Shown here piece after piece: positions 26,413 to 43,159 of a DNA stretch of 64,000 nt. The stretch lies in the NCBI GenBank assembly GCA_902779565.1, contig CACZCD010000008.1:571-64570 (forward strand), read 5' to 3'. Position 1 is the stretch's first letter; each line of letters opens with the position of its first letter. Origin of the DNA: an uncultured bacterium (lineage in GTDB: Bacteria > Verrucomicrobiota > Kiritimatiellia > RFP12 > UBA1067). Made by a program: the position numbers and the translations under genes. Below the pieces are notes generated by a model. It did no database searches and had not been told where the DNA came from. It saw only the letters and a list, made by a program, of their open reading frames with translations.

Positions 26413-27963
26413 ATGCAAAACGACGACGCGTTGGCGGTAGGGGTGGATTTCGGCACGGACTCGGCCCGCGCCCTGCTGGTTCGGACGTGCGACGGAGCGG
26501 TGCTCGCCTCCTGTTCGCATCCCTATGCGCGGTGGGGGAAGGGTCTTTACAGCGAGGCGGCGCGGATGCGGTTCCGCCAGCACCCGCACGACTACGCCGA
26601 GGCGCTGCGGGCGGTTCTCCACGGCGTGCTGGGCGGACGGAATGATAGGGACCGCGTCGCCTGCATCGGTGTGGACGCCACCGCGTCCACACCGTGCCTG
26701 ACCGATGCCGAGGGACTTCCGCTTTCGTTGCAGCCGGCGTTCGCGGCGGAACCGGATGCCATGTTTGTCCTGTGGAAGGATCATACGGCGGAACGTGAGG
26801 CGCGCCAGATTACGGAAGCAGCACGGCCGCACGGCTACTGCCTGAACAACGGTGGGGTCTATTCGCCGGAAAACGGCTGGGCGAAGGTGTGGCACATCCT
26901 CTTGACGAACCCCGCCGTCGCAAACGCGGCCGCGTCTGTTGTGGAGGCAGGGGATTACATCGTTTCGCTTCTCACCGGCACGGCCATAACGCCGTCGTAT
27001 TGCGCGGCGGCCTACAAGTGGATGTGGCGCGCATCGTGGGGCGGCTATCCGCCCGAGGCGTTCTTCCGCGAACTGGGCGGCGAACGGCTGGCGGCGATAC
27101 GCGCCTCGCTCTCGAAGAAACCCATCGCGGCGTCGGCGAGCGTCGGCACGCTGTCGCGGGCATGGGCGGAGGAACTGGGTCTGTCGGACGGTGTGACGGT
27201 CGCCGGCGGGAACATAGACGCACATTCCGGTGCCGTCGGCGCGGGATGCAACAAAGGAACGGCGGCGCTCATTCTCGGCACGTCCGGATGCGTCATGTGC
27301 GTGGCGCCGCGCGAGGATTTCGGCGGCAAACCCGTGACGGGCGTGTTCGGTCAGGCGCCGGATAGCATCATCGCCGGGCTTGAAGGATTCGAGGCTGGAC
27401 TGGCCGCCTTCGGCGACAGCCATGCTTGGGTCGGTCGTCTCGTATCGGAACCGCTCGCGTCGCTCGACCGCAAGGCGGCGGCGCTGGAGCTGGACGACTC
27501 CGTGCCGGTGGCGACGGACTGGTTCAACGGGCGGCGTTCGCCGTTTCAGGATCCGTCCGTGCGGGCGACGGTCACCGGGCTCGGGCTGGGCACGGATGCG
27601 GTGCGTCTCTATTTTGCTGTGGTGGAGGCGACGGCGTTCGGCGTCCGTGCGGCGGTGGAGCATCTGGAGGCGAACGGCGTCCGTGCCGACCGCAACGTCG
27701 CCATCGGTGGAATCGCCAGCAAATCGCCGTTCGTGATGCAGATGTTGGCCGATGTGATGGGGCGGATGATCGAGGTGTCGTCTTCCGTAGATGCCAGTGC
27801 TCTCGGCTCGGCGATCAATGCCGCCGTTGCGGCGGGGCTGTACGGGAACGTCGCCGAGGCGCAGAAGCGGATGTGCGCGCCGTCATGTGCAACGTACACC
27901 CCCCGCCCGAACCGCAGCCACAACGCGCGTTACGCCCTCTACAAACGGCTCTCGGGAATCTAA
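26413..27963 (+). CDS. araB: ribulokinase (FGGY family)
   Basis: Co-linear with E. coli AraB as I recall it: VGVDFGTDSARAL, FRQHPHDY, PDAMFVLWKDHTA, WFNGRRSP, GGIA.KSPFVMQ. Confidence 0.8.
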   Translation: MQNDDALAVGVDFGTDSARALLVRTCDGAVLASCSHPYARWGKGLYSEAARMRFRQHPHDYAEALRAVLHGVLGGRNDRDRVACIGVDATASTPCLTDAEGLPLSLQPAFAAEPDAMFVLWKDHTAEREARQITEAARPHGYCLNNGGVYSPENGWAKVWHILLTNPAVANAAASVVEAGDYIVSLLTGTAITPSYCAAAYKWMWRASWGGYPPEAFFRELGGERLAAIRASLSKKPIAASASVGTLSRAWAEELGLSDGVTVAGGNIDAHSGAVGAGCNKGTAALILGTSGCVMCVAPREDFGGKPVTGVFGQAPDSIIAGLEGFEAGLAAFGDSHAWVGRLVSEPLASLDRKAAALELDDSVPVATDWFNGRRSPFQDPSVRATVTGLGLGTDAVRLYFAVVEATAFGVRAAVEHLEANGVRADRNVAIGGIASKSPFVMQMLADVMGRMIEVSSSVDASALGSAINAAVAAGLYGNVAEAQKRMCAPSCATYTPRPNRSHNARYALYKRLSGI

Positions 27964-27965
27964 AA
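27850..27965 (+). repeat. 116-bp direct repeat, copy A (authentic araB 3' end)
   Basis: 113/116 identical to 29262-29377 with a constant offset of 1412 nt and no indels. Confidence 0.9.
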
Positions 27966-28035
27966 GCCGCGCGTCTCCGTGAAGAGCCTTCTTTCCTTTC
28001 TTGCCTGGTAGCAGAAACGGAAAGAATATAAAATC

Positions 28036-28086
28036 AGCGCCTGAAATCAATGGTTTGAGCAATGCCCAGACGTTGTTTCAGGCGCT
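28036..28086. terminator. long inverted repeat between convergent araB and the membrane-protein gene (possible bidirectional terminator)
   Basis: AGCGCCTGAAA (28036-28046) pairs with TTTCAGGCGCT (28076-28086), an 11-bp stem with a 29-nt loop, followed by TCTTCT. Confidence 0.35.
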
Positions 28087-28132
28087 TCTTCTCACGAATA
28101 ACCGTGAAGATCCGCAATGGCCTTGGATGGCT

Positions 28133-28999
28133 TTACTTCTTCAGCTCGTCCAGCTTGCGCGGAACCGAGACGATTGCCTTGTAGAAGTCAAGCGTGAACA
28201 CCACGATAAGGTAGAAGAAATACACGAGCAGCGGAATCGCGAACGGGATGAGCGCCGTTGCGCCAAACACTATCGCAGCGTAAAGCCCATCGTCAAACCA
28301 CTGCACAATGCCATAGACGAGACCGCCAACTGCGCCCATGCCGATGAGCAGGGTGAGCAGCGCGATGACCACCCTGACCGGTAACAGCACAAGAGCAATC
28401 ACCTCTTCGACGCAGTTCACCGGATACCCAGGCTTTACGCCGACAATGCTGGGGCGCTCAAGGCATATGATCATCAGAACGGCGAAGATTATCGCGGCTA
28501 TCGCAATAGCCACTAAATCCTTGTCGAAGTTCAGAAGCAGGTACACGCCGAGGAGGATTCCGCCGATTCCACACACCACTTTCATAATGTACATCAATTC
28601 AGGACGGATGAGCACGGACTCGCCTTTGTCAACAAACGAGCGCGTAAGCGCGAGCGCCTTGGGAGCCAGATGCATGGCAAAGAGGACTGGGATGAGAATG
28701 AAAAGCTGCTTCATGACCCAGGAGAACGGGGCGTCGTTCTTTATCATGGTGATCAAGCCCGTCAAGCACGCGAGAACGCCGGCAAGGGCGATTACCGCAG
28801 GCAGGAACATGGAGATGTATTTGTTGGCGGTGCCGAGCCATGAATCCCATGGACGGTTGCCAATGATGCCAAGTGCACCTTCGACCCAGTTATCAACCTT
28901 ACCGCTGTACTCACTGATCTTCGCAGTTACCTTCTGGGAGGTGTTGTTGCTATCGGTGGGTTCGGCGACCCCGTCGCCATTTACGTTGTTTTCGCTCAT
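28133..28999 (-). CDS. polytopic membrane protein, unknown function
   Basis: 288 aa with ~6-7 hydrophobic helices. Strong AAGGAG SD upstream of ATG 28999. Visibly lower G+C than the flanks. Confidence 0.6.
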   Translation of the reverse strand: MSENNVNGDGVAEPTDSNNTSQKVTAKISEYSGKVDNWVEGALGIIGNRPWDSWLGTANKYISMFLPAVIALAGVLACLTGLITMIKNDAPFSWVMKQLFILIPVLFAMHLAPKALALTRSFVDKGESVLIRPELMYIMKVVCGIGGILLGVYLLLNFDKDLVAIAIAAIIFAVLMIICLERPSIVGVKPGYPVNCVEEVIALVLLPVRVVIALLTLLIGMGAVGGLVYGIVQWFDDGLYAAIVFGATALIPFAIPLLVYFFYLIVVFTLDFYKAIVSVPRKLDELKK

Positions 29000-29261
29000 G
29001 TTGCTTTTCTCCTTTTGCGTGTATGCCCGTCAGCAATTATTGCTCCGGCAATGAAATATGTTGAACCACAAAGTACACGAAAGCCACAAAGCTATGAGAT
29101 CTTTGTGATCTTTGTGTCTAATAATCACAACATATCATTGCCGCTTCTATAATCAGCGCAACACCAGTTGCGTAGCCTTGTGCTGACGATGCGTTCCTTT
29201 CTTTTGGCGCACATTATAGCAAAACCGATTAGGTGATGCAAGGGGGCGTCTCCTGGTCTCA

Positions 29262-29377
29262 GTTGCCGAGGCGCAGAAGCGGATGTGCGCGCCGTCATGT
29301 GCAACGTACACCCCCCGCCCGAACCGCGACCACAACGCGCGTTACGCCCTCTACAAACGGCTCTCGGGAATCTAAAA
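29262..29377 (+). repeat. 116-bp direct repeat, copy B (orphan duplicate of the araB 3' end)
   Basis: See 27850-27965. It includes the last ~37 codons and the TAA of araB, but no upstream araB sequence. Confidence 0.9.
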
Positions 29378-29395
29378 CCGCCCCCGCTTGCTCCA

Positions 29396-29449
29396 AAACT
29401 CTCCCCCTGAGACAGGGGGAGTGCCCGGAAGGGCGAGGGGGTATGATTC
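29396..29449. repeat. second copy of the REP-like hairpin element
   Basis: aaactctccccctgagacagggggagtgcccggaagggcgagggggtatgattc matches 24927-24981, differing by one 1-nt indel and one substitution. Confidence 0.85.
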
Positions 29450-29501
29450 TCACGCTTAACCAACCAACCACCAGCCTTCGCTAAAGCTACGGCTCGGCAA
29501 G

Positions 29502-29550
29502 CTAATCACTAACGACTAACGACTAACCACTAGCCACTAACCACTAACCA
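29502..29550 (-). repeat. tandem heptamer array x7 in inverted orientation (CTAACSA)
   Basis: ctaatca ctaacga ctaacga ctaacca ctagcca ctaacca ctaacca is the reverse complement of TGGTTAG-type units. It ends 9 nt before the promoter at 29559. Confidence 0.9.
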
Positions 29551-29558
29551 CTGACTTA

Positions 29559-29567
29559 TGGTAAAAT
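29559..29567 (+). promoter_or_regulatory. extended -10 box TGgTAAAAT for the RhuM-Mrr-ATPase operon
   Basis: TGGTAAAAT at 29559-29567. The in-frame ATG at 29592 is preceded by GAAAGG (29577-29582). Confidence 0.45.
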
Positions 29568-29591
29568 ATGCGGCATGAAAGGCAAGGGTGG

Positions 29592-30509
29592 ATGAGCGCA
29601 AGCGAAAATCAGATTGTTGTGTATCAGCCGAACGAGACCGTGCGGCTGGATGTGCGGCTTGAAAACGAGACGGTGTGGCTGACGCAGCTGAAGATTGCCG
29701 AGTTGTTTGGGGTTCAGAAGGCTGCGATCAGCAAGCACGTCAAAAACATATTTGCTTCTGGTGAACTCGTCAGGGACGCAACAGTTTCCAAATTGGAAAC
29801 AGTTCAAACGGAAGGTGGACGCACGGTTGTTCGCACACAGGAGTTCTTCAATCTAGATGTCATTATTGCGGTTGGCTATAGGGTGAATTCTCGACGCGCG
29901 ACACAGTTCCGCATCTGGGCGACAAAAGTACTCAAGGAATACCTCCTTCGCGGATATTCGGTCAATTCCCGACTGAACCAACTAGAAGATACGATGCATC
30001 GTAATCTTGCCAAACATGATGACCGCATCGCCACCCTTGAACAGAAGGTTGATTTCTTCGTGCAGACGCAGACGCCGCCGTTGCAGGGCGTGTTTTATGA
30101 TGGCCAGTTGTGGGATGCGCGGGCGCTGGTGCTGAAGCTGATTCAAAGCGCGAAACGTTCGCTGATACTCATCGACAACTGGGCGACGCCGGAGGTGCTG
30201 GATCTTTTCGCGAAGAAGCGCAAGGGTGTGCGGCTGACAATCTTCACATCGGAGCATTTCAAGAAGGGTGTTCCGAAACACCTGATTTCCCCTGCCGACA
30301 TCTCGACCTTCAACGCACAGTACCCGAAACTCGCCGTCCGCTACAACGAATCCTTCCACGACCGCTTCCTCATCATCGACGACAAGGAACTGTTCCTGAT
30401 AGGCGCGTCGCTGAAAGACCTCGGCAGCAAATGTTTCGCCTTCACGAAACTGGACGCGGGCGAAATCCGGCGAATCAAGAGGTCGGCGTTTGGGGCGGGC
30501 GTAAGGTAA
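29592..30509 (+). CDS. RhuM-family protein with C-terminal PLD/HKD-like domain (H-x-R-x4-D variant)
   Basis: IVVYQPNETVRLDVRLENETVWLTQ...IIAVGYRVNSRRATQFRIWATKVLKEYLLRGY is the RhuM signature. The C-terminus reads SLILIDNWAT...HDRFLIIDDKELFLIGASLKDLG. The track start 29568 lies inside the -10 box, so 29592 is preferred. Confidence 0.7.
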   Translation: MSASENQIVVYQPNETVRLDVRLENETVWLTQLKIAELFGVQKAAISKHVKNIFASGELVRDATVSKLETVQTEGGRTVVRTQEFFNLDVIIAVGYRVNSRRATQFRIWATKVLKEYLLRGYSVNSRLNQLEDTMHRNLAKHDDRIATLEQKVDFFVQTQTPPLQGVFYDGQLWDARALVLKLIQSAKRSLILIDNWATPEVLDLFAKKRKGVRLTIFTSEHFKKGVPKHLISPADISTFNAQYPKLAVRYNESFHDRFLIIDDKELFLIGASLKDLGSKCFAFTKLDAGEIRRIKRSAFGAGVR

Positions 30510-30527
30510 TTTACGGAGGAACATGAA

Positions 30528-31445
30528 ATGAGAAAAGAAGATGGTGTGAAACTGAGCAAGAGGACGGCTGATGGGAAGATTGCGTATCTGATCAAGCCCA
30601 TTTTAAAGGTGTTGCAGGACGCGGGTGGGCAGTTGGAGCGTTCGGAAATAAAAGAACGCATAGCTGATTTGGATGACCAGATTGCCGAGTATGCCGAAAA
30701 AGTGACGATATCGAAGAAAAAGGGGAATACTTACAAGGAGTTCAATTTCAAGTTCAACTTTGCAGTCAAGGATTTGCTTTTTAATGGGTTGGTGACATTC
30801 TCGCGTTCATCTCCCGTGGTGCTAACGGAGAAGGGTGAAAACCTCAATTTAAACACGCTTGATGTTTGGAAGATCATAGAGGCGTCTAAAACGCATTGGG
30901 AAGAACTTAGCGAGAACAGGAAGAAGAAAGACTTTGACCTGAACGACAGCGAAGAGGAGACGCAGGCAGAGGAAAAGATCAAGGATGAATTCAAGGAATC
31001 CTTGCTTGCAGCTATCGCAAAAATGTCGCCCAAAAAGTTTGAGGCGTTTTCAAGGGCGCTGTTAAACAAGATGGGTGTGGAGTTCACGGAAAAGGGCGTT
31101 CAAGTCAGCAATGATGGCGGTATTGATGGATACGGTTATCATGTTGATCGTAACGATTTTCGAACGACGCGGGTGGTGATTCAGTGCAAGCGGTATAATG
31201 TTGGGCCCGTGTCCGAGCCAGAGATCAACCAGTTTTTGGGCGCGATGAACAAGTACCAAGCAGATTACGGCGTGTTCATCACAAATGGTAGGTTTACAAG
31301 CGCGGCAAAAACCGCCGCAAAAGAAGGTTCGCCGATTACTTTGATCGACGGCAACGAATTGGTGAGACTGGTCATAAGATACGAATTGTATATCAAGCCG
31401 GTTCAGACCTATGTGTTGGATGATTTCTATGATTCAGACGAGTAA
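30528..31445 (+). CDS. Mrr-like type IV restriction endonuclease (Mrr_N wHTH plus Mrr_cat)
   Basis: GGIDGYGYH...RVVIQCKRY...YGVFITNGRFTSAAKTAAKEG..ITLIDGNELVRLVIRY is the Mrr catalytic-core pattern. The gene is AT-rich. Confidence 0.75.
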   Translation: MRKEDGVKLSKRTADGKIAYLIKPILKVLQDAGGQLERSEIKERIADLDDQIAEYAEKVTISKKKGNTYKEFNFKFNFAVKDLLFNGLVTFSRSSPVVLTEKGENLNLNTLDVWKIIEASKTHWEELSENRKKKDFDLNDSEEETQAEEKIKDEFKESLLAAIAKMSPKKFEAFSRALLNKMGVEFTEKGVQVSNDGGIDGYGYHVDRNDFRTTRVVIQCKRYNVGPVSEPEINQFLGAMNKYQADYGVFITNGRFTSAAKTAAKEGSPITLIDGNELVRLVIRYELYIKPVQTYVLDDFYDSDE

Positions 31446-31457
31446 GGAGATTTTTAG

Positions 31458-33146
31458 ATGGCAAACACGATCACAGCTACAAGGGAATATGTAGACAGGA
31501 AGTTCGAGGAATTGAGGGATCAATTGGCGAAAGAAAGTAAAGATGACGCCTCTATGATTCGTCCTGAGCCCATGATATTACGTGGTGTGCAATTTGTTGA
31601 ACACCCAGTATTGCAAGGCCTTAAGTTAGATTTTTGTAATGCACAAGGTGTGCCTTCTGATACGATTATTTTTGCTGGAGAAAATGGAACTGGTAAAAGT
31701 GCTATTATAAGTTCGATAGATGATATTATTTCTAGAAGCTATTCAATAAAGCAAAAGATTATTCTTGAAGTGCAGACCGAACGAGGGGTTTGTTTTGTCA
31801 ACTATAATGTTCGGCAGAAAGGAATAGCGGATAGGTATTGTCAAGATTCGTCAGGAAAGCAATTCATTTTCACGGGGCTTAATTTTAGTAAGTCCATATA
31901 TTCTGATGTCGATATAAATTTCAAAGGAGGAGTTGTTAGAACTGTCACAAGCCTAGCATTTGATTCTGAATCGGGGAGTATGCATTCTACGCCAGAGCTT
32001 GCTACGGAAATCAAGCAATTGATTGTTGACATACAAAGTCTTGATGATGCAAGTACTGCACGTTGGGTTAGAAAAAACATCGGCAATGGCAAAACCATCG
32101 ACGAAGCGCCAAGTCAAGTTCGTTTGAACAGATTGACAAAAGCGTTCGACTATATTTTCTCCGATTTGCAATATGATAGGATTGAGAATCGGGATAACCA
32201 TAAAACAATCATTTTCAAGAAGTGTGGTGTTGATGTCCCGATAGATGCCTTGAGTTCTGGAGAAAAGCAGATTGTGTATCGAGGCTGTTTTATGCTGCGC
32301 AACATAAACGCTTTGACGGGGGCGTTTGTATTTATTGATGAGCCTGAGATAAGCATGCATCCCGAATGGCAGAAGAAGATATTGAATTTCTACAAGCGAA
32401 TATTCACTACGGAAAGCGGGATACAAACATCGCAAATTTTTGTTGTTACACATTCGCCGTTTATTATCCATAATGAGAATAGATACAATGATAAGGTTAT
32501 AGTTTTGGAACGAGATAAGGATAATAACATAATAGTTAAGGACAAGCCTGAATATTACAGATGTGATTCGGTGGAAGTGGTGTCGGATGCCTTTCATGTT
32601 GATTTCAATGTTCAGGGACAACGTCCAGTGGTTTATGTTGAAGGAAAGACGGATGAGCGATATTTCTCGGAAGCGGCAACTGTCTTTGGGATGGTATTAC
32701 CATTTGACTTTTGTTGGATTGGGCATATTAATGACAATGGTAAAGAGGATAATTCCGGCGATACCGGATTAAGACGTGCCGCGACACACTATAAGGCAAA
32801 CAATCCACCTATGAAGATTGTGATACAATATGACTGCGATAAACCGCATCAACTTGAACAGCAGGGAAATCTTATTGTGAGATCTGTTGAAAGTTATCCT
32901 AATGTCAAGAATTGTAAAAAGGGCTCGGAAAATGCCCTTGTACTGGATGTGATAGATGAAGTAAAGTGGAATGAATTTTTTGAGCGTAAAGAGAACGATA
33001 AGGGATATGGGAAATCTAACATCGAGTACGAACTACGAAAATCGGAACTGTGTAACTACATCTGCGGTTTGCCTGATGAAGTCAAGCGACATGTGTTTGC
33101 GAATCTAAAAACTGAAATTGAAACGTTGATAGATTTACTGAAGTAA
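31458..33146 (+). CDS. ABC-type ATPase fused to a C-terminal TOPRIM-like (DUF4435/OLD-type) domain; OLD-family or merged-PARIS (AriA-AriB)-like defence candidate
   Basis: Walker A GENGTGKS, ABC signature LSSGEKQ, Walker B VFIDEPE, H-loop VVTHSP. These are followed by VYVEGKTDERYF (TOPRIM Glu) and QYDCDKP (DxD). This is the most AT-rich gene in the window. Confidence 0.65.
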   Translation: MANTITATREYVDRKFEELRDQLAKESKDDASMIRPEPMILRGVQFVEHPVLQGLKLDFCNAQGVPSDTIIFAGENGTGKSAIISSIDDIISRSYSIKQKIILEVQTERGVCFVNYNVRQKGIADRYCQDSSGKQFIFTGLNFSKSIYSDVDINFKGGVVRTVTSLAFDSESGSMHSTPELATEIKQLIVDIQSLDDASTARWVRKNIGNGKTIDEAPSQVRLNRLTKAFDYIFSDLQYDRIENRDNHKTIIFKKCGVDVPIDALSSGEKQIVYRGCFMLRNINALTGAFVFIDEPEISMHPEWQKKILNFYKRIFTTESGIQTSQIFVVTHSPFIIHNENRYNDKVIVLERDKDNNIIVKDKPEYYRCDSVEVVSDAFHVDFNVQGQRPVVYVEGKTDERYFSEAATVFGMVLPFDFCWIGHINDNGKEDNSGDTGLRRAATHYKANNPPMKIVIQYDCDKPHQLEQQGNLIVRSVESYPNVKNCKKGSENALVLDVIDEVKWNEFFERKENDKGYGKSNIEYELRKSELCNYICGLPDEVKRHVFANLKTEIETLIDLLK

Positions 33147-33284
33147 AATCTGGATGAACACGTGTATGCATGATGAAAGGAAAATGATAGATGATAAAAC
33201 AGGACATTGAAGAAAATGAAAAAGCGAGTGTTGCTGGTCGCGGTGTTGGCCGCGTTAAACCTATTTGCTGAAGGAGAGCCGAAG

Positions 33285-34913
33285 ATGCCGACGTTGAACT
33301 GGATGGGAAGGGAAAAGGCGACGAAGTCCGTCAAGGATGTCGTCATGAAGATTCTGCGCGAGGACAAGTCGCTGTCGTACCATGCAGACGGATTGCTTTC
33401 GCTACGGGGAGTTTCGGAGTCTCGGAGAGAGGGCGAAGACTCTAAAAATTCTCCAGATCTCCAAAACTCCAAGACTCCCAGTAGCGAAAGCAACAATGTC
33501 CTCGTCCACGGCGACAACTTGGAGGCGCTGAAGGCGCTGTTGCCGTTCTATGCCGGGCAGGTGAAGTGCATTTACATCGATCCGCCGTACAACACTGGCT
33601 CCGCGTTCGAGCATTACGATGACAACCTCGAACACTCCACATGGCTCAACATGATGTACCCGCGCCTTAAGCTCCTACGCGATTTCATGCGCGAGGACGG
33701 TAGCATTTGGATATCCATCGATGACGATGAGCAGGCGTACATGAAGGTCATGTGCGACGAGATATTTGGAAGGCAGAACTTTGTGGCAACCGTCGTCTGG
33801 CAAAAACGCACATCGCCAGACAATCGCTTGCGCCTTGGTGATGCGCACGATTACATTCTCGTTTATCAGAAGCACAAAGATAAATGGTTGTTTAATCAGA
33901 TAGAGGCGGGAGAGGATAGAAAGAAAGATTTTAAGAACCCTGATAACGATCCCCGCGGTCCTTGGGCCTCCGTTGATATTACAGGAATGAAGGGCCACGC
34001 TACGTCAAATCAGTTTTATACGATAATAACTCCAGCAGGTGTAGCCTTCCCGCCTCCGGATGGAAGATGCTGGGCATTGGCTGAAGACACATTTAATAAG
34101 TTACGTTCAGAGAATAGAATATGGTTTGGCAAAGATGGCAAATCGCGGCCAAGACAAAAAAGGTATCTTTCGGAGCTGAAGGGTCAAAATTGCTGGACGT
34201 GGTGGACTAAGGAGGAGGTTGGTCATAACCAAGAAGCAAAGAAAGAAGTCAATGTTCTATTCGGGGCGGATAACCCATTTGACACTCCAAAGCCAGAGCG
34301 CCTAATACAACGTATATTGACTCTTGCGACGAATCCGGGTGACCTTGTGCTTGATTCGTTTCTTGGCTCTGGTACGACAACGGCGGTTGCGCACAAGATG
34401 GGGCGGCGGTGGATCGGTATTGAGATGGGCGAACACGCGAAGACACATTGCGTGGTGAGGATGAAGAAGGTAGTCGATGGCGAACAGGGCGGAATCTCCA
34501 AGGCGGTGAAGTGGCAAGGTGGTGGCGGTTTCCGTTACTACGAGCTGGGCGAGGCAATCTTGAACGAGGACGGTTCGTTGACGGGTGACATTCCGTTTGA
34601 CGTGATGGCGGCGCATGTTTGGTTCTCCGAAACGAAGACGCCTTATATGGGCGGCAAGAAATCCACCGTTCTTGGAGTACATGTGGGGACGGCGTATGTG
34701 CTTCTGTACAATGGCATCCTCAAGGACAGGAGCGTGAACGGCGGCAATGTGTTGACGCGCAAGACGCTAGAGGTGATACAGGCGGATCTGGCGGGGCGTG
34801 ACTATGAGAAGATAGTCGTCTATGGCGAGGCGTGTCGTTTGATGGCGCCAACATTGGAGGCGTTGAAGATCGAGTTCCGCCAGACTCCTTACGACTTGGT
34901 GACGAGGAGGTGA
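33285..34913 (+). CDS. mod: type III restriction-modification methyltransferase (Mod, N6-adenine/N4-cytosine family)
   Basis: MPTLNWMGREKA start, VHGDNLEALKAL, IYIDPPYNTG (motif IV), DSFLGSGTT (motif I). AAGGAGAG SD at 33271-33278. The track start 33207 adds a spurious signal-peptide-like extension. Confidence 0.8.
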   Translation: MPTLNWMGREKATKSVKDVVMKILREDKSLSYHADGLLSLRGVSESRREGEDSKNSPDLQNSKTPSSESNNVLVHGDNLEALKALLPFYAGQVKCIYIDPPYNTGSAFEHYDDNLEHSTWLNMMYPRLKLLRDFMREDGSIWISIDDDEQAYMKVMCDEIFGRQNFVATVVWQKRTSPDNRLRLGDAHDYILVYQKHKDKWLFNQIEAGEDRKKDFKNPDNDPRGPWASVDITGMKGHATSNQFYTIITPAGVAFPPPDGRCWALAEDTFNKLRSENRIWFGKDGKSRPRQKRYLSELKGQNCWTWWTKEEVGHNQEAKKEVNVLFGADNPFDTPKPERLIQRILTLATNPGDLVLDSFLGSGTTTAVAHKMGRRWIGIEMGEHAKTHCVVRMKKVVDGEQGGISKAVKWQGGGGFRYYELGEAILNEDGSLTGDIPFDVMAAHVWFSETKTPYMGGKKSTVLGVHVGTAYVLLYNGILKDRSVNGGNVLTRKTLEVIQADLAGRDYEKIVVYGEACRLMAPTLEALKIEFRQTPYDLVTRR

Positions 34914-34917
34914 GGTT

Positions 34918-37596
34918 ATGAGCATGACATTGACGCATTATCAAGATCATACTTTGGCGGCGGTCAAGGCGTATTTCGAGCGCTGCGCTTTCGAGTCGCC
35001 GGAGGCCGCCTACAAGACGGTAACGGCGGAGGGCGACACGCGGCTGCGCCTGGGTGCGGACCATGGCTACAAGTCGCCGAAGGGGATGGAGAACGTGCCA
35101 ACTGTCTGCATCAAGGTTCCGACGGGCGGCGGCAAGACGATACTTGCGGCGCATTCGCTGAAAATCATCGCCGAGGCGCAGTCAAAGGATTATCCGTTCG
35201 TGTTATGGTTTGCGCCGAGCGACACGATACGGAAGCAGACGGCGGATGCATTCAAAAACGTGTTGCATCCGTATCGACAGGAACTTGACCGTCAGTTCGA
35301 AGGGCGCGTCAAGGTGTTCGACCTTGACGAGAAGTTCCAGATATTGCCGGAGGACATCGCGGACAACCTATGTATCGTTGTCAGTACCGTTCAGGCGTTC
35401 GTCCATGAGGAAACCGGAAAATACAACGTCTATCGGCATAACGAAGACATGGAGAAGCATTTCGGTGACATTGCGCTTGAGCCCGGTATGGAGGCGCAGG
35501 ACGAGGCGGTTGGCGGCGATCCGACGAAACCGAAGTTCTCTTTCGCCAATTTCCTGTGCCACATACGCCCGATCATCATTGTTGACGAGGCGCATCACAT
35601 GGTGACAGACCTCTCGCAGAAATCGTTGGTGCGTCTGAATCCATGCGCTGTCCTGGGCTTGACGGCGACGCCAGGACGCGACAACAATGTCCTTTACAGC
35701 GTCTATGCGCAGGAGCTTTTTGACGAAGAGATGGTCAAGTTACCGATTGAGCTGACGGAGTACAAGCTTGATTGGGAAAAGGCCGTTGTGTCGGCAAACG
35801 CCAAACGCGCGCAGTTGGCGAAGCTTGCGGCGGCGGAGAATGCCGCAAAAGAGGGCAAATATGTCCGGCCGATCGTTTTGTTTCAGGCGACGCCGAAGAA
35901 CGGCGACGTTCCCGTCGAGAAGCTGAAGGAGTATCTGACGGACACGTTGAAGATTCCGGAAGAGGAAGTCAAGATCGCAACGGGTGACCAGAAGGAACTG
36001 GACGATGTCAATGTCATGGATTCAGCCTGCAAGGTCAATTACGTCATTACCGTCCAGGCGTTGAAGGAAGGGTGGGATTGCCCGTTCGCCTACGTTTTCT
36101 GTTCACTCGCAAATGTCGGCAGCAGCAAGGACACGATTCAGTTGTTGGGGCGTGTGATGCGCATGCCGTATGCAAAAAGGCGCAAAACGCGCGAGTTGAA
36201 CCGTGCGTATGCGTTCGTCATGAGCAAGGAGTTCGGTTCCGCCGCCAAGGAGCTGACGGAAGGTCTCAAGAAGAAGGGCTTTTCGGAGGTTGAGGCATTC
36301 AAGGCCGTGCAGGAGAATCTGCCGGAGACAGGGGGCCTGGGCGACTTGTTCTCCGTGCCGTCGGATGTGGTCAAGTTGGACAAGGCGACGCTGGATGGCC
36401 TAGTCTTGCCTGTGGGAATCAAGGTTCAGGATTTTGCAAGCGGCGACGGAGAGATACAGCTTTCAGGTTCTGAAGACGACGGGGTGATTGAGCAAGTGGC
36501 CGTGCAACTTGCTCAAAACGGCATGCAGGAAAAGGCGCACGAGCTGAAGCTCAAGCACCAGAAGAAGAAGGCGCAAGTCGCAGCGCCGATTCCGGCGAAG
36601 AGCCATCCATGGAGGTTCCCGAGGCTTGGCGTTGAGATAGACGGGGACAGTCTGTTTTCGACAGATGCTGTCTATGAGACGATTGGGGACTCCATACTTG
36701 GCTTTCTGCCAGAGGCTCTTTCCGGGGATGAAATATCAATAAGCGGCAACGACGGGAAGACATTCATCCTGAAACTGGACGGAAACGAGATGACCGCACG
36801 GTTCGCGGCAGATGCACATGCCGAGTATTTAAAAGGTTTCTCGGGGAAGATAGAAGATTCTGATGTCGTCAATGTGTTGGACGGCATTACCAAGGATTGC
36901 GTGTTGTTGTTGCAGTCAGAAAAGCGGCATTGGTTGACTCAGATCGTTGCCGATCTTCGGGCCAATCATGGCATGACCTGCGAACAGATGGTTTTGGTGC
37001 GCTTCCAGATCAAGCAACGGTTGGAATGGCATCTGAGCGAGGCGCTTGGCAAGGCAAGGCGCAAGGCGTATCAGCAGACGTTCTGCCTGGGCGGCGATTA
37101 CAAGCTGTCTTTGGATCTGCCCAGAGGATTTGCGCTTGATGAACATATATACGCGGGTAATTCAGATGTATACAATGGAAGCTGGCGGTTCAAGAAACAC
37201 TATTTGGGGACTTATGCCATACCTAAGTTTGACGGCAAGAAACCATTTGGCGAGGGAGAGGAATTCGAATGTGCGAAGCTGATTGATTCTTCGTCAAAGG
37301 TCCTTTATTGGCTTCGAAACAAGGATTCCGATTCGGCTTCGTTTCGTTTGCCAATGGGAGGCAGGACGGAGTGGTTCTATCCTGACTTTGTCGGGGAACT
37401 TGTGGACGGCCGGTTTTTCGTGTTGGAATACAAGGGCGAGCTTACTGGGCAATCCGCTGATACAGTCGAAAAGACGGCCATCGGGAAACTCTGGGCCGCG
37501 CAAGATGCATCGCGCTATGTCTATGCCACGATATACGGTTCTTCGCCAAGCGGCCTGACTGTAGCGCAACAGATAGAAGATGCCTTCAAGAATTAA
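34918..37596 (+). CDS. res: type III restriction enzyme Res subunit (SF2 helicase plus C-terminal PD-(D/E)xK nuclease)
   Basis: VPTGGGKT (Walker A), IIVDEAHH (DEAH box), and a C-terminal YPDF...FVLEYKG nuclease motif. It starts 4 nt after the mod stop. Confidence 0.8.
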   Translation: MSMTLTHYQDHTLAAVKAYFERCAFESPEAAYKTVTAEGDTRLRLGADHGYKSPKGMENVPTVCIKVPTGGGKTILAAHSLKIIAEAQSKDYPFVLWFAPSDTIRKQTADAFKNVLHPYRQELDRQFEGRVKVFDLDEKFQILPEDIADNLCIVVSTVQAFVHEETGKYNVYRHNEDMEKHFGDIALEPGMEAQDEAVGGDPTKPKFSFANFLCHIRPIIIVDEAHHMVTDLSQKSLVRLNPCAVLGLTATPGRDNNVLYSVYAQELFDEEMVKLPIELTEYKLDWEKAVVSANAKRAQLAKLAAAENAAKEGKYVRPIVLFQATPKNGDVPVEKLKEYLTDTLKIPEEEVKIATGDQKELDDVNVMDSACKVNYVITVQALKEGWDCPFAYVFCSLANVGSSKDTIQLLGRVMRMPYAKRRKTRELNRAYAFVMSKEFGSAAKELTEGLKKKGFSEVEAFKAVQENLPETGGLGDLFSVPSDVVKLDKATLDGLVLPVGIKVQDFASGDGEIQLSGSEDDGVIEQVAVQLAQNGMQEKAHELKLKHQKKKAQVAAPIPAKSHPWRFPRLGVEIDGDSLFSTDAVYETIGDSILGFLPEALSGDEISISGNDGKTFILKLDGNEMTARFAADAHAEYLKGFSGKIEDSDVVNVLDGITKDCVLLLQSEKRHWLTQIVADLRANHGMTCEQMVLVRFQIKQRLEWHLSEALGKARRKAYQQTFCLGGDYKLSLDLPRGFALDEHIYAGNSDVYNGSWRFKKHYLGTYAIPKFDGKKPFGEGEEFECAKLIDSSSKVLYWLRNKDSDSASFRLPMGGRTEWFYPDFVGELVDGRFFVLEYKGELTGQSADTVEKTAIGKLWAAQDASRYVYATIYGSSPSGLTVAQQIEDAFKN

Positions 37597-37677
37597 GATG
37601 AAATGCGGACTGCTGGCTGGAGGGGGTGCTAGAGGGACAGACCCAATTTGTGGAGTAGAAATGGTGGAGTAGAGACT

Positions 37678-37818
37678 ATGGCGATGCCGCAGAGAGACGA
37701 TACGATAGAGGCGATCAAGCGACTTGACGCCTTGCTTGAGTATGCTGTCATGCATGGAGACGAGGAAGAGGCCGAACGCATCCGCGAGGAGTTGCGCAAG
37801 CTGACGGAATCGGTTTGA
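37678..37818 (+). CDS. 46-aa helical small protein, copy 1 of a 3-member family
   Basis: MAMPQRDDTIEAIKRLDALLEYAVMHGDEEEAERIREELRKLTESV*. It is not in the ORF track (<60 aa). It is conserved at protein level with 44250..44390 and the split copy at 41007. Confidence 0.55.
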   Translation: MAMPQRDDTIEAIKRLDALLEYAVMHGDEEEAERIREELRKLTESV

Positions 37819-38082
37819 ATGGCGGCAGTATGGTATGATCTGGCGAGGAGGAACACTATGATAACGAAGAGCGAATTGGGAAATCTGCTTGAGCCCACGG
37901 AGACGTGCCGTGTCGAGCAAACCAAGTCCACGACGGACAAGGACAAGTTCGGCGAGGCCGAGACGGGGAAGTCGGTCGTACTGGCGCCAGCGCCAACTGA
38001 CGACGAGGTGCTTGAATGACAAAGAGGGTGAACGGATGAAAATCTTAAACACACGAATGAACATTTTCAGAGGAGGCGGGAA

Positions 38083-39174
38083 GTGAAGAAGAAGATCGGT
38101 GTTCACCTTGCACACGGAAATAAAAGACCTGTCAAGACGCGGAAGTCAAGTCTTGCAGATCGCATCATAACGCTTGTCGAGGAGGCAAAGCGCAAGGTTG
38201 TCTCGGCGGTCAATGTCGCTCTTGTCTATACCTACTACGAAGTCGGGCGAATGATTGTGGAGGAGGAGCAGGGGGGCAAGAAACGTGCCCAATACGGCAA
38301 GGCACAGCTCCAGGCACTGTCGAAGAAGTTGACGGCACAGCTCGGCAAGGGATGGAGCGCGACGAATCTAGAATACATGCGCAAGTTGTTCCGCGTGTAT
38401 TCAAATTCACCAATTCCTCAAACCGGGTTTGAGGAATCTGACGTAAGTCCTCGGTCCGTGTATCCGTTTCGCCTAAGCTGGTCGCACTATCTCGTGTTGA
38501 TGAGGATGGACAATCCTGACGAGAGACGCTTCTATGAAATCGAAGCCGCCGAAAACGGTTGGGATCTGGACGAGTTGAAGCGACAATTCAATTCCTCTCT
38601 TTACGAGAGGCTTGCCCTCAGTCGCGACAAGAAGGGCGTACTCGAATTGGCGAAAAAAGGGCAAATTGTCAAAAGGCCGGAAGATGTCGTCAAAGATCCG
38701 TATGTGCTTGAATTCCTCGGCCTGGAAGAGAAAGCGCGATACAGCGAAACGGAATTGGAGTCACGGATAATCGAACACGTCGAGCAGTTCATACTAGAAA
38801 TGGGCAAAGGATTCATTCTGGTTGGGCGGCAAGTACGTTTCACCTTCGAGGAAAAGCATTTCAGGGTGGATCTCGTGTTTTACAATCGGATTCTTCGGAG
38901 CTTCGTGGTCGTCGACCTGAAAACAGGCGAGTTGACGCATCAGGATATCGGGCAGATGCAGATGTACGTGAACTACTACGACCGAATGGTGAAGCTGCCG
39001 GAAGAGAATCCGACCATCGGGATACTCCTTTGTGCGGACAAGAACGACGCCATTGTTGAAATGACGCTGCCGCAAGGCTCCAAGCGCATATTCGCGAGCA
39101 AGTACATGACCGTTCTTCCCGATAAGGAAACCTTGCGTCTACTCGTCCGCAAGCAGCTCGGAGGCGAGAAATGA
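38083..39174 (+). CDS. DUF1016/YhcG-family PD-(D/E)xK nuclease, copy 1
   Basis: WSHYLVLMRMDNPDERRFYEIEA, DPYVLEFLGL, ESELESRIIEH..FILEMGKGF.LVGRQ and RVDLVFYNRILRSFVVVDLKTGEL match the YhcG pattern. GTG start follows a GGAGG SD. Confidence 0.75.
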   Translation: MKKKIGVHLAHGNKRPVKTRKSSLADRIITLVEEAKRKVVSAVNVALVYTYYEVGRMIVEEEQGGKKRAQYGKAQLQALSKKLTAQLGKGWSATNLEYMRKLFRVYSNSPIPQTGFEESDVSPRSVYPFRLSWSHYLVLMRMDNPDERRFYEIEAAENGWDLDELKRQFNSSLYERLALSRDKKGVLELAKKGQIVKRPEDVVKDPYVLEFLGLEEKARYSETELESRIIEHVEQFILEMGKGFILVGRQVRFTFEEKHFRVDLVFYNRILRSFVVVDLKTGELTHQDIGQMQMYVNYYDRMVKLPEENPTIGILLCADKNDAIVEMTLPQGSKRIFASKYMTVLPDKETLRLLVRKQLGGEK

Positions 39175-39500
39175 AGAAGCAGGCCACGAAAAAGAACGAC
39201 AAAGAATACGACAGATTGGTTGCCGACATCTCGAAGATGGCCAAGTCGTTGGCGGGGCATTACGAGCAGTCTTGTGCCTTGCTCAAACCGACAATAGATG
39301 ACGCCTGTCGGAATCCCAGTTCGTACAGCGAAAAGGAGATCGAGCGGATTTTCGATCAGATACTGGATGTGTCGTGCTACAAGAAGGGGAAGCTGCTCTT
39401 CGACAGGCTGTGCAAGTGTTTTATGCCGATCTATCCTGATGCGGTTCGGTTCTACATCGACAGCGAAAAGGAAATGTATGGTGACGAAAACGACACTTGA
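39171..39500 (+). CDS. hypothetical 109-aa protein between the two DUF1016 genes
   Basis: The start overlaps the upstream stop (ATGA at 39171). No recognisable motif. Confidence 0.45.
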   Translation: MKKQATKKNDKEYDRLVADISKMAKSLAGHYEQSCALLKPTIDDACRNPSSYSEKEIERIFDQILDVSCYKKGKLLFDRLCKCFMPIYPDAVRFYIDSEKEMYGDENDT

Positions 39501-39553
39501 AGAACCTAAGAAACAGATTGCCGACGACGAGTGTGAGCTGATGGAGGTGAAAC

Positions 39554-40945
39554 ATGCGCAGTAAAAAGAAAACTGACTTTGAAAGTCTGGTCGGTCGGAT
39601 TCAGGCAACGTCGGAGGCGTTGCAGCAGGACGCGCTTGTGGTCATCAACCGCAGCGTAACAGCGCGGGCGTGGCTCACGGGCTACTACATCGTCGAGTAC
39701 GAACAGCACGGTGCTGACCGTGCAAAGTATGGCGAGAGGTTGTTGAAGAAACTTTCATCGAGGTTGGGATCTGATAAATACGCCGTTCCCACATTGAAAA
39801 CATATCGTCTTTTCTATAAGCTTTATCCTGAGCTTGCCGCTGAGATTTGCAGGTATCTGGAGAGCCGTTTCGGAAAAGGATCGACAGTGTCGAGCCAATT
39901 GCCGGGCGGCAACATCAACGTCTTGCCGGGAAAAGGATCGACACTGTCGAGCTTATCTGTGGAGCAGGGATTGCTTGTCTATTCTGGTGATGATATCGGC
40001 ATAGCACCATTCGCACTCTTCAACAACCTTTCGTATTCTCACATTTGCGAGTTGTTGCATCTTCCTGATCCGATGATGCGGACGTTCTATGCATTTGAGG
40101 CAATCCGCGGAACGTGGAGCGTGCGGGCCTTGCGCCGGCAGATTGACAGCCAGTACTATCAGCGCGTGGGATGGGCGAAGAATCCGCACAAGATCGCAGC
40201 GTTGGCGCAAGGGCGGGCGGAGAAGCTGGACGCGAAGGATTTCATCAAGCAGAAGACGGTTCTTGAATTCCTTGGATTGAAGCCCCGGGAAGATTGGGAT
40301 GAGTCGGATCTTGAGAAGGGGATCCTTGACAATCTCAAGAACTTCATTCGAGAGATGGGGGCCGGTTTCTGTTTCGAGGATCAGCAGCAGCACATCCTCA
40401 TCGATGATGTGTACGAACGGATTGATCTTGTATTCTACCACCGCATCCTTAAGTGCCACATCCTCATTGAGCTTAAGCCGAAGAAGCTCAACTACAAGGA
40501 TATTGCGCAACTTTCGCTCTATATGGCTTACTACCGTAAGAACAAGATGACGGCGGGCGACAATCCGCCGATCGGCATCCTTCTGTGCACGGGCGTAGGT
40601 AAAGAGACGGCCGAGTACCTCGCACCATTCACCGATCCGCAGCTTTTCCTCTCCGAGTATCAACTTCAGCTTCCCACGAAGGAGAGGTTCACCGAGTTCC
40701 TCAAGAAGGAAAACGAGGGGCTTCAGGCAAGTGTGGGAAAAGGTGTGGTAAAAAGTGGGGTAAAGATTCTGGAACTTCTCAAGGAGTTTCCGGAGATGAC
40801 GCGTGAAAGGCTGGCGGCGGAAGTGGGCCTGTCGGTAAGAGGCGTTGAAAAGAATCTCGCGCAACTGAAGGCTGCGGGCAAGATTCGCAGAATCGGTGGA
40901 CGCAAGGGCGGTCATTGGGAGGTCGTAAAAGGCGGCGGGAAGTAG
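39554..40945 (+). CDS. DUF1016/YhcG-family PD-(D/E)xK nuclease, copy 2, fused to a C-terminal winged-helix domain
   Basis: WSVRALRRQIDSQYYQR, LEFLGL, GAGFCFEDQQ and RIDLVFYHRILKCHILIELKPKKL. The C-terminal ILELLKEFPEMTRERLAAEVGLSVRGVEKNLAQLKAAGKIRRIGGRKGGHWEVV is a wHTH of the kind found at the C-terminus of AlbA_2/Schlafen-type proteins. Confidence 0.75.
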   Translation: MRSKKKTDFESLVGRIQATSEALQQDALVVINRSVTARAWLTGYYIVEYEQHGADRAKYGERLLKKLSSRLGSDKYAVPTLKTYRLFYKLYPELAAEICRYLESRFGKGSTVSSQLPGGNINVLPGKGSTLSSLSVEQGLLVYSGDDIGIAPFALFNNLSYSHICELLHLPDPMMRTFYAFEAIRGTWSVRALRRQIDSQYYQRVGWAKNPHKIAALAQGRAEKLDAKDFIKQKTVLEFLGLKPREDWDESDLEKGILDNLKNFIREMGAGFCFEDQQQHILIDDVYERIDLVFYHRILKCHILIELKPKKLNYKDIAQLSLYMAYYRKNKMTAGDNPPIGILLCTGVGKETAEYLAPFTDPQLFLSEYQLQLPTKERFTEFLKKENEGLQASVGKGVVKSGVKILELLKEFPEMTRERLAAEVGLSVRGVEKNLAQLKAAGKIRRIGGRKGGHWEVVKGGGK

Positions 40946-41006
40946 TAGTTGGCTATTTGTGGTTAGAGCTGGGAAGTTGACAGAGTAGAATGCATAGGGA
41001 AGCATC

Positions 41007-41427
41007 ATGGCGATGCCGCAGAGAGGCGATCCGCCTACGCCAAGGCTTCCGACTCCGCTGAAGCTTCCACCTACGCTAAAGCTACCGCCGCCGCGCTTTG
41101 CGCTAGGACGGACAAGACGGCGGACAAGACGGCGGACAAGTATGATCCTCCTTCGCGCTTGCGAGCTTCCGCCTTCGCCGAGCCTCCCCCCGTCACATCT
41201 TCATGCCCCACCCCTCCGACACATATTGCAATATGTGTACGAGCGTGTACGGTTGGTGATTAGTGGCTTCCGCCTCCGCGTATATGCTTTTGCGCGTCAA
41301 GTGCGTTGCTTGAATACGCCGTCAGGCCATTCCCGCTTTTATATAAATCCGGGAATGACCTGATATCGCCGAAGCCGAGGCCGCGCGCCTCCGTGAAGAG
41401 TTGAAGCGCCTCACCGACTCGATCTGA
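41007..41427 (+). pseudogene. split copy 2 of the 46-aa small-protein gene (about 336 bp replaces its middle)
   Basis: The 5' part atggcgatgccgcagaga (MAMPQRGD) is at 41007-41030. The 3' part ...AEAEAARLREELKRLTDSI* is at ~41364-41427. Unrelated repeat DNA lies between them. Confidence 0.6.
41063..41185 (+). repeat. 123-bp direct repeat, copy 1 (built from 18-nt and 12-nt sub-repeats)
   Basis: 119/123 identical to 42828-42950. It contains CCRCCTACGCTRAAGCTT-type 18-mers and GACGGCGGACAA x2. Confidence 0.85.
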
Positions 41428-41537
41428 AAGGAATCAAACCATGTTCACAGTTTATAAACCATGGACATCGTTGGTTACCACCGGATTTATATAAGTGCGG
41501 TGGTAAATGTGAGTGGTTTTTATATGCGCTGGCAGAT

Positions 41538-41566
41538 TTGCGGCAAAGGGCGGGGTGTGGTACAAT
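41538..41566 (+). promoter_or_regulatory. sigma70 promoter (TTGCGG-N17-TACAAT with TG extension), repeated at 44190-44218
   Basis: ctggcagatttgcggcaaagggcggggtgtggtacaat is near-identical to 44181-44218. It lies ~245 nt upstream of the second RhuM-like gene. Confidence 0.5.
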
Positions 41567-41812
41567 ACGCGGCGCTTTCGGGGATTGATGCCCTAGGTAG
41601 GGCTATAAAGCGAAAGTCGTCCGGACCGGGCTTGTGGCAAGCTGAGATCCACAGGAAACCGCATGGGCCGGGTAGCGAGGAAATCCGCTGAAACAACGCG
41701 GACGCCACTTCGGTGGCATGGCTGGCAGAGCCGATTCCAGACTGCAGCGGCGGCGTGTGCCGCCGATGATACGGCAACACATCCCGCATAGGCGGGCGAA
41801 AGGAATCGGACA

Positions 41813-42727: not shown

Positions 42728-42827
42728 TGCGCGTACCCTAATTTCAGGCGGCAGTTTGGTCTAATTCCCGCTGTAAAAAGTAGGTCAACAAGTTGGAGTA
42801 GTTTGAACAATAGAAATACTCTTGCGA

Positions 42828-42950: not shown

Positions 42951-42993
42951 ACCCCCGCTGCTCGTGTGAGATGGGGAAGCATCTGAGCAGCTC

Positions 42994-43081: not shown

Positions 43082-43159
43082 ATATTCGATTGACTTCAGC
43101 CCTGCCGAAACCTCGCCGATCTTGAATCAATTGCGGCGCGCCTGAATCCTAACCAAGTT

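Follow-up and report, generated by a model that had tools for sequence, protein, structure and literature searches.

A gene for an ABC ATPase with a predicted TOPRIM-fold domain beside a type III restriction-modification system in a Kiritimatiellia defence island: a putative stack of exchangeable defence modules

We analysed a 64,000-nucleotide (nt) stretch of contig CACZCD010000008.1, hereafter the window, from an uncultured bacterium of the Kiritimatiellia (Verrucomicrobiota). An earlier reading of this DNA, here called the original prediction, had proposed a three-gene operon at 29559-33146, with a RhuM/PLD-like gene (gene 1), an Mrr-like nuclease gene (gene 2) and a gene for an ABC ATPase fused to a TOPRIM domain (gene 3), as a composite or undescribed defence system. 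These genes are the front end of a co-directional cluster of five, namely gene 1, mrr, gene 3 and the mod and res genes of a type III restriction-modification (R-M) system. We hold, with slightly better than even confidence, that the cluster is a stack of separately mobile defence layers anchored on the type III R-M system, with gene 3 as a guard-type back-up. The association that is conserved across lineages is that of gene 3 with the type III Mod, which lies outside the boundary originally drawn.

All three open reading frames (ORFs) of the original proposal are present on the plus strand, gene 1 at 29568-30509 in its longest form, gene 2 at 30528-31445 and gene 3 at 31458-33146, with the 18-nt gap between the first two and the 12-nt gap between the last two that had been described. 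The end placed at 33146 is too early. After a gap of 69 nt the same strand continues with the gene for the Mod methyltransferase (33216-34913; Pfam N6_N4_Mtase, 181 bits; PADLOC MTase_III) and, 4 nt further on, with that for the Res restriction subunit (34918-37596; PADLOC REase_III). No convincing terminator was found between the cluster genes; terminator-like candidates in the region occur at chance level and lie within coding sequence. The observation that the two distal genes are more AT-rich than the first is borne out, with GC contents of 0.53, 0.46 and 0.39 for genes 1, 2 and 3, and of 0.66, 0.58 and 0.375 at their third codon positions. GC in the flanking chromosome is 0.60-0.64. The low-GC island that holds the cluster spans about 17 kb (about 27966-44870) and is bordered by a sugar-kinase gene on one side and by ordinary chromosomal genes on the other. 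The expectation that the three families are defence-associated and located in a defence island proved right. An Rfam scan of the island returned no known RNA, in particular no retron non-coding RNA.

Further evidence comes from related loci, which we designate by L numbers. The clade closest to gene 3 (50-100 % identity) comprises seven distinct lineages, and a type III mod gene is adjacent in all seven. The window and contigs L090-L094 have the order gene 1 – Mrr – gene 3 – Mod – Res. Loci L001-L006 open with a 160-aa protein of no assigned function, followed by gene 3, Mod and Res; L007 has Fic – Mrr – gene 3 – Mod – Res, and L008/L009 have an AAA/S8-protease pair – Mrr – gene 3 – Mod – Res. 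The remaining arrangements are ORF6N-PLD – gene 3 – Mod (L117), helix-turn-helix (HTH) protein – gene 3 – Mod – Res (L107) and Mod – gene 3 (L108). The full trio occurs only in the lineage of the window, on five metagenomic contigs (L090-L094) whose gene 3 sequences are 100 % identical and which therefore count as one lineage; in the other six lineages with gene 3 the upstream genes differ. In three lineages gene 3 directly follows Mrr, with gaps of 12-21 nt and Mrr identities of 79-100 %; the other four of the seven have no Mrr. The 160-aa protein of L001-L004 was considered as a truncated Mrr and rejected, having neither similarity to Mrr nor any family match. The original prediction had named co-occurrence of the three families in other genomes as the check on its proposal, with a lack of conserved co-occurrence to be read as chance juxtaposition; the neighbourhood comparison found no conserved trio, so that the proposal of a conserved three-gene composite system falls.

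A similar picture emerges when the neighbourhoods are followed from the other two genes, the close relatives of gene 1 and of Mrr being mostly found without gene 3. Relatives of gene 1 at 87-91 % identity stand alone (L095); in L098 a relative is followed by a second RhuM-type gene, a KAP NTPase gene that takes the place of gene 3 and type III Mod/Res, and in L101 one precedes a type II-like methylase gene and a TIR gene. In L187 and L188 a PLD-type gene is followed, again after 18 nt, by an Mrr gene at 98 % identity, with an AAA/S8-protease pair and other genes in the place of gene 3 upstream of Mod, and in L189 an 81 %-identical Mrr heads a type I system. The PLD–Mrr pair recurs in three contexts. 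Taken together, these neighbourhoods suggest that the slot upstream of the R-M core takes shuffled accessory modules, of which pairs recur and the trio does not. The pair of AAA ATPase and S8 peptidase is found upstream of Mrr in L008 (3469-6803) and replacing gene 3 in L187 (8010-11284) and L188 (2527-5801), and is probably another accessory defence module.

Full-length relatives of gene 3 at 35-48 % identity were recovered at 24 genome loci, seven of them inside a type I operon. The typical order there is hsdM, a RhuM, Bro-N or ORF6N-PLD gene, gene 3, hsdS and, further on, hsdR, and the embedded relatives (39-48 % identity), lying between hsdM and hsdS/hsdR, are those of L010, L011, L013, L017, L023, L025 and L033. 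Others have a Gabija-like pair as neighbour within a defence island (L018) or adjoin housekeeping genes (L026-L028). A very common gut allele, P0033 (L109-L116; 49 % identical to gene 3), is the last gene of a small element without R-M genes, with the order serine recombinase, DUF5986, HTH/ImmA-like peptidase, PBECR4 and gene 3 relative, and this element is found at several different chromosomal sites in human-gut contigs. A metagenome scan for close relatives of gene 3 yielded three loci, too few for statistics. Viral contigs, when scanned, gave a single relative of nearly full length (L120) besides a single partial match (L136), which does not support a phage-borne origin of gene 3, and a search of plasmids gave three partial matches from Clostridium and no others.

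Gene 3 opens with a 48-residue helical N-terminal extension that is common to its closest clade, and its residues 49-384 constitute an ABC ATPase (ATPase part, 31458-32609) for which Pfam AAA_15 and AAA_21 both score above threshold. The Walker A motif (GENGTGKS, residues 74-81), the signature (LSSGEKQ, 265-271), the Walker B motif (FVFIDEPE, 290-297) and the H-loop (THSP, 331-334) are all present, and GENGTGKS, LSSGEKQ, DEPE and THSP are invariant in the alignment. In both sequence and fold the ATPase is nearest to PtuA (of Septu and of retrons Ec78/Ec83), then to AriA and then to OLD, all three of which are also recovered as PDB profile matches; PADLOC and NCBIfam models fall on this part as well. 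As a fold search with the whole protein was swamped by the ATPase, the C-terminal domain (residues 385-562, 178 residues; 32610-33146) was modelled alone, with an AF2 pLDDT of 91.8. Its best Foldseek matches are cryo-EM structures of retron Eco2 (Ec67; E=2.6e-4 to 9e-4), whose reverse transcriptase we take to carry a fused TOPRIM domain. Further matches are to chain 8ux9_A of the PARIS immune complex (probability 0.90), presumably AriB given its length of 306 residues, and to the C-terminal TOPRIM regions of the Xanthomonas and Burkholderia OLD proteins (probability 0.6-0.87). The domain has invariant acidic residues in E395-G-x-T-D399, D459-x-D461 and E491. This set agrees with the glutamate and subsequent DxD that are typical of TOPRIM domains, and pattern and fold together lead us to accept the call of an ABC ATPase::TOPRIM fusion. 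The call thus stands with the ATPase recognized by sequence and the TOPRIM domain by fold and motifs, while no sequence model of Pfam, PADLOC, NCBIfam or the PDB sees a TOPRIM or DUF4435 domain.

Among the hidden Markov model searches that had been suggested, RhuM, Mrr and AAA_15/AAA_21 give matches in the cluster and DUF4435 does not. More specifically, PF20469, DUF4435 and RloB have no match in gene 3, DUF4435 being absent even at E<=5, and a C-terminal-only alignment of gene 3 gave no PDB match in the profile search. Comparison of the gene 3 C-terminus by hhalign with the OLD-like TOPRIM protein of L018 gave nothing significant, just the motif-1 segment VYVEGKTDE being aligned, at the start of the OLD TOPRIM domain. 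On the strength of the structural model and the conserved motifs, gene 3 is predicted to be an ABC ATPase fused to a TOPRIM-fold nuclease-like domain, an architecture of the OLD family. Among 1.84 billion proteins, those with the C-terminal domain fall into 293 clusters when grouped at 50 % identity; most are about 500-620 aa long and carry the domain C-terminally. The gene 3 family has more than 2000 homologues, which public records name only 'AAA family ATPase'. Assignment to TIGR04435, the 'restriction system-associated AAA ATPase', was rejected, gene 3 scoring 56 bits against a cut-off of 300. The protein is best described as a member of an R-M-linked subfamily of ABC-ATPase/TOPRIM effectors without prior characterisation.

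Several characterized systems offer points of comparison. The OLD nucleases (P2 Old and Thermus scotoductus OLD, class 1 consisting of single genes) combine on one polypeptide an ABC ATPase at the N-terminus, which includes a helical insert, and a C-terminal TOPRIM fold with conserved acidic residues; gene 3 shares the former and is predicted to share the latter. Gene 3 matches 6p74 by both PDB profile and Foldseek and the C-terminal regions of 6njv and 6nk8 by Foldseek, but it lacks a match to Pfam OLD-like_TOPRIM, and its ATPase is closer to those of PtuA and AriA. OLD proteins have been classified by context into class 1, which is solitary, class 2, with a UvrD helicase, and class 3, with a retron reverse transcriptase, class 1 genes being defined as not adjoining other defence genes (PMC10568477). 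Gene 3 fits none of these classes: it has no adjacent UvrD or reverse transcriptase gene and is flanked by Mrr and Mod/Res, and whereas class 1 is solitary by definition, the gene 3 clade is fixed beside the type III Mod. PARIS (AriA with AriB, or fused AriAB) has both an ABC ATPase and a TOPRIM effector, as is predicted for gene 3; the gene 3 ATPase is matched by the models of AriA and AriAB, and the R-M linkage of gene 3 fits an anti-anti-restriction role. The AriAB model covers residues 224-402 of gene 3 only and leaves the TOPRIM half unmatched, and DUF4435 gives no match. PARIS is typically found in P4/P2 hot spots and not inside R-M operons, and gene 3 differs in this respect.

PrrC and RloC fuse an ABC-type ATPase to a C-terminal nuclease, as is predicted for gene 3, and like it have their genes within R-M operons, where RhuM- or Doc-like genes frequently accompany them (PMC3710099). 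They differ in having a HEPN effector and in residing in type I loci, whereas gene 3 has a TOPRIM-like fold and a type III partner; no HEPN domain was matched in gene 3, and beyond the ATPase fold no relation by sequence was detected. PtuA of Septu, found also in retrons Ec78/Ec83, is the best PADLOC match of gene 3 (E=1.3e-35, residues 39-370) and supplies the best structural matches of the ATPase. The NCBIfam PtuA score is nevertheless 50 bits against a cut-off of 500, and there is no PtuB HNH gene in the cluster; where Septu has this separate HNH partner, gene 3 has a fused TOPRIM-fold domain that would take the nuclease role.

The type III genes themselves appear complete. Mod is matched over its full length by PADLOC MTase_III (E=1.6e-183) and has the motifs DPPY and FLGSGTT, and Res is matched over its full length by REase_III (E=3.7e-133) and comprises a superfamily 2 helicase with TGGGKT and DEAH motifs and a C-terminal PD...ExK nuclease motif. 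By these features Mod and Res are predicted to make up a complete type III R-M system. The 69-nt spacer between gene 3 and mod (33147-33215) is conserved at the nucleotide level in four lineages, which indicates that the junction is old, and it may carry the mod promoter or a regulatory element. In the 5' part of the mod coding region lies a 45-nt inverted repeat (33393-33437 and 33449-33493, 80 % complementary, 11-nt loop), with an 8-nt tandem repeat in each arm. This structure could serve in phase variation or regulation of mod. Downstream of Res are two DUF1016/YhcG PDDEXK-nuclease genes (38083-39174 and 39554-40945), the second with an extra C-terminal winged HTH domain, and members of this family are also embedded in type I operons beside gene 3 relatives in L013 and L025.

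The call of an Mrr-like nuclease for gene 2 is sound, with Pfam Mrr_cat at 111 bits (cut-off 21) and Mrr_N at 44 bits (cut-off 29.5). The protein has an Mrr_N winged helix and an Mrr_cat PD-(D/E)xK domain in which the D...QxK motif (GIDG...VIQCK) is intact, and PADLOC assigns it to PDC-S02 / mREase_IV. It is hence predicted to be an intact Mrr-type type IV (modification-dependent) restriction endonuclease, with the same domains and catalytic motif as known enzymes of this type and no notable difference from them. Alleles at least 80 % identical to gene 2 occur in Planctomycetes, Firmicutes and Kiritimatiellae metagenome-assembled genomes (MAGs), and to judge from this spread it appears to be an ordinary Mrr that is highly mobile and very widely transferred.

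Gene 1, taken as the 305-aa product of 29592-30509, begins with a DNA-binding domain of the RhuM type (about residues 1-140) and ends with a Nuc-like domain of a variant PLD/HKD type (about 170-300), the two being joined by a coiled linker; this division is drawn from Pfam, PADLOC, gene calls and the family alignment. Pfam RhuM (PF13310) matches at 83 bits, over profile positions 1-69 of 252 and residues 63-130 of the protein, whereas the RhuM protein of L017, for contrast, matches profile positions 16-247. The C-terminal region of RhuM, including its putative toxin part (profile 70-252), has no match in gene 1, and a PLD-like domain is found instead. The original label of RhuM/PLD-like is therefore right for the N-terminal part of RhuM and for the PLD-like C-terminus and does not extend to the rest of RhuM. 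PADLOC model PDLC04879 of PDC-S05 matches gene 1 from end to end (E=5e-108), and this architecture has thus already been catalogued as a defence candidate; in comparison with these known families, gene 1 resembles the beginning of the RhuM model in its first 140 residues and PDC-S05 over its full length. The closest named relatives of gene 1 are from Kiritimatiellae MAGs, which points to a gut or rumen member of that class as the probable host.

The PLD-like domain, which makes up the C-terminal 130 residues, scores 17.7 bits with Pfam PLDc_2, below the threshold of 27. The family profile of gene 1 matches Nuc, an endonuclease of Salmonella (1byr, E=1.6e-4), in an alignment that pairs HDR with the catalytic HDK. 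The degenerate HKD motif that had been pointed out, HDRFLIID with Arg for Lys, is present as F-H-D-R-F-L-I-I-D (H256-D-R258-F-L-I-I-D263, 30357-30380, plus strand) and is invariant across the family, whose invariant columns are H256, D257, R258, D263, G271, A272, S273, K275 and D276. Relative to the HxK(x)4D(x)6GSxN consensus, gene 1 keeps H256, D263 and G-A-S, while Lys is invariantly replaced by Arg258 and Asn by K275; where Nuc has its catalytic HxK Lys, every member of the gene 1 family has Arg. The whole motif, H256-D-R258-x4-D263...G271-A-S-x-K275-D, is kept even in relatives of 23-32 % identity with an ORF6N N-terminal domain instead, which implies that the change from Lys to Arg is a fixed feature of the family and not decay. 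We infer that gene 1 is a further DNA-directed effector or sensor, these sequence features being compatible with both a nuclease and a DNA binder.

The island has another RhuM-N/PLD-variant gene at 41813-42727, which shares 58 % identity with gene 1 and is located 12 kb downstream of it, and tandem pairs of such paralogues are also seen in L098 and L101. In L187 the PLD-like C-terminal half of the gene at 6041-6982 is 77 % identical to that of gene 1 and its N-terminal domain is of the ORF6N and not the RhuM type; with Mrr still 18 nt further on, this appears to be the same effector module with its DNA-binding domain swapped.

With respect to the start of gene 1, the putative extended -10-like element TGGTAAAAT (29559-29567, plus strand), which had been proposed as the single promoter, is present by sequence inspection; it has no accompanying -35 element and is not among the sites reported by a sigma-70 consensus scan, so the promoter assignment stands only in part. 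The element directly touches the first ATG of gene 1 (29568), and a transcript that it initiates would lack the first eight codons, so that if the promoter is real the start would have to be the ATG at 29592. This start, which gives the 305-aa protein, was chosen by independent gene calls on identical metagenomic contigs and is where the PADLOC family models begin to match. The ATG at 29592, and not that at 29568, is thus likely to be the start codon. On the upstream side, a tandem array of the heptamer CTAACCA (29502-29552, plus strand, 7.3 copies, TRF score 74) lies just before the element and might be a slipped-strand switch or a spacer. Further upstream, at 29475-29493, is a 19-nt fragment of a 131-nt direct repeat whose two copies (41062-41192 and 42827-42957, 96 % identical) flank the second RhuM-PLD gene. 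The repeat includes a 12-nt tandem, CGGACAAGACGG, breaks one copy of a 46-aa ORF taken up below, and resembles a small repeat element.

In the stacked arrangement that we favour, Mod and Res would cut unmethylated incoming DNA, and Mrr would cut DNA bearing foreign base modifications, which some phages use to evade restriction enzymes. Gene 3 would be an R-M-linked back-up in the manner of PrrC and PARIS. Its ATPase would sense infection through an anti-restriction protein, the disabling of the R-M complex or damage to DNA, whereupon the TOPRIM nuclease would be freed to act on tRNA or DNA and the infection would be aborted. Gene 1 would be an extra DNA-targeting effector or sensor, dimerising via its single HKD-like domain. 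The models for this proposal are PrrC, which is encoded inside a type Ic locus and fires upon inhibition of the enzyme by T4 Stp, and PARIS, which senses the anti-restriction protein Ocr and cleaves tRNA-Lys, both being regarded as R-M guardians (PMC12707154). Likewise, OLD-type ABC ATPases with TOPRIM or other nucleases have been described as back-up effectors in BREX and R-M-like loci (PMC12839542), and Anantharaman et al. (PMC3710099) described as multi-level defence those R-M operons in which ABC-ATPase-HEPN proteins are encoded together with RhuM- or Doc-like ones.

Several points weigh against this reading. The roles of all five genes are predicted from their sequences; residues 385-562 of gene 3 are matched by no model of Pfam (E<=5), PHROGs, NCBIfam or the PDB sequence set, and the Foldseek matches of this domain to AriB and OLD are weak (E=0.05-0.1). 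Co-transcription of the cluster is presumed, and the several AT-rich promoter-like sites that the sigma-70 scan places within gene 3 may speak against it. Relatives of gene 3 also occur with no R-M genes nearby, on the serine-recombinase element and beside housekeeping genes; the existence of such solitary forms means that the protein can work alone and that adjacency to R-M genes may be mere co-location. Finally, sequence identities to the window are incongruent, L001 having 84 % for gene 3 and 48 % for Res and L008 65 % for gene 3 and 86 % for Res, which argues against tight co-evolution of gene 3 and Res.

Some of these observations also feed the strongest alternative, that the modules are independent and uncoupled, their adjacency reflecting defence genes that pile up and are exchanged at one hot spot. 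Gene 1, Mrr, gene 3 and Mod/Res each have abundant close relatives in other contexts, gene 3 relatives travel as solitary cargo on a small mobile element, the identities of gene 3 and Res diverge from lineage to lineage, and the sharp GC differences between the genes suggest separate acquisitions. Yet uncoupled modules sit poorly with a type III mod adjacent to gene 3 in seven of seven lineages, with a conserved junction in four of them, and with the type I loci, where gene 3 is inside the operon, between hsdM and hsdS, and not beside it. We therefore regard independence as possible but somewhat unlikely. More tentative still, and in our judgement unlikely, is the narrower proposal that gene 3 proteins of the N-extended clade serve specifically to guard type III enzymes, firing their TOPRIM nuclease when a phage anti-restriction factor disables the complex. 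In that case gene 3 would dock on Mod/Res, perhaps through the 48-residue helical extension.

Two tighter couplings fare worse. Mrr and gene 3 might form a two-gene module, like those in which an OLD-type ABC ATPase has a PD-(D/E)xK, HNH or PIN nuclease as its partner, or gene 3 might be an extra subunit of a variant type III enzyme. The close spacing and high identity of Mrr in three lineages would suit the former, as would the pairs of OLD-type ABC ATPase and restriction endonuclease (REase)-fold nuclease known from the literature (PMC12839542), and the conserved gene 3-Mod junction would suit the latter. As Mrr is missing from four of the seven lineages and is at least 80 % identical in many phyla without gene 3, as gene 3 has a nuclease-like domain of its own, and as Mod and Res are complete without it, both versions strike us as improbable. 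That gene 1, Mrr and gene 3 are one obligate three-component defence system we consider very improbable indeed, for although they share one strand, the tight 18- and 12-nt spacing and the same arrangement on five metagenomic contigs, those contigs are one lineage, none other among the lineages examined has all three genes, and each gene is replaced by unrelated genes in sister islands. The stack of separately mobile layers on a type III R-M anchor is thus the reading that we retain.

The island also contains several further repeats and small elements. The 3' end of the FGGY sugar-kinase gene is present twice, as a direct repeat of 116 nt (27850-27965 and 29262-29377, 97 % identical), which resembles the scar that a site-specific insertion would leave there. 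Between the two copies are 1.3 kb with a single gene on the minus strand (28133-28999) encoding a 288-aa multi-pass membrane protein, for which no family match was found. The 46-aa ORF mentioned above (MAMPQRDDTIEAIKRLD...EAERIREELRKLTE) occurs three times at module junctions of the island, at 37678-37818, at 41007-41363 (the disrupted copy) and at 44250-44390, and a 21-nt piece of it lies at 27966-27986, immediately after the kinase stop codon. It is also found at 72-91 % identity in sister islands of other organisms (L008, 14579-14716; L001, 15570-15707; L003, 8538-8675; L004, 8194-8331), and might act either as a small regulator or as a joint at which recombination exchanges modules. The palindrome CATAGTTTGCAAACTATG is present in at least eight copies within larger repeats of 46-84 nt (43150-44172), on both sides of a minus-strand gene (43407-43988) for a protein with two winged-helix domains, and the array looks like one of operators or iterons.

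ABC-ATPase-nuclease fusions and RhuM- or Doc-like genes in R-M loci have already been published (PMC3710099, PMC12839542), and our result extends a pattern known from comparative genomics and overturns nothing. The island exemplifies the swapping of PLD-type, Mrr, OLD-like, AAA/S8-protease, KAP NTPase and Fic genes upstream of an R-M core. If the role proposed for gene 3 is correct, it would add a sizeable family to the ABC-ATPase/TOPRIM abortive-infection effectors and would offer, in tractable form, a guard coupled to type III R-M rather than to type I or BREX. Should the narrower guardian proposal be true, type III systems would have their first demonstrated guard of the PrrC kind, and a TOPRIM domain invisible to current sequence models would prove to be an abortive-infection effector.

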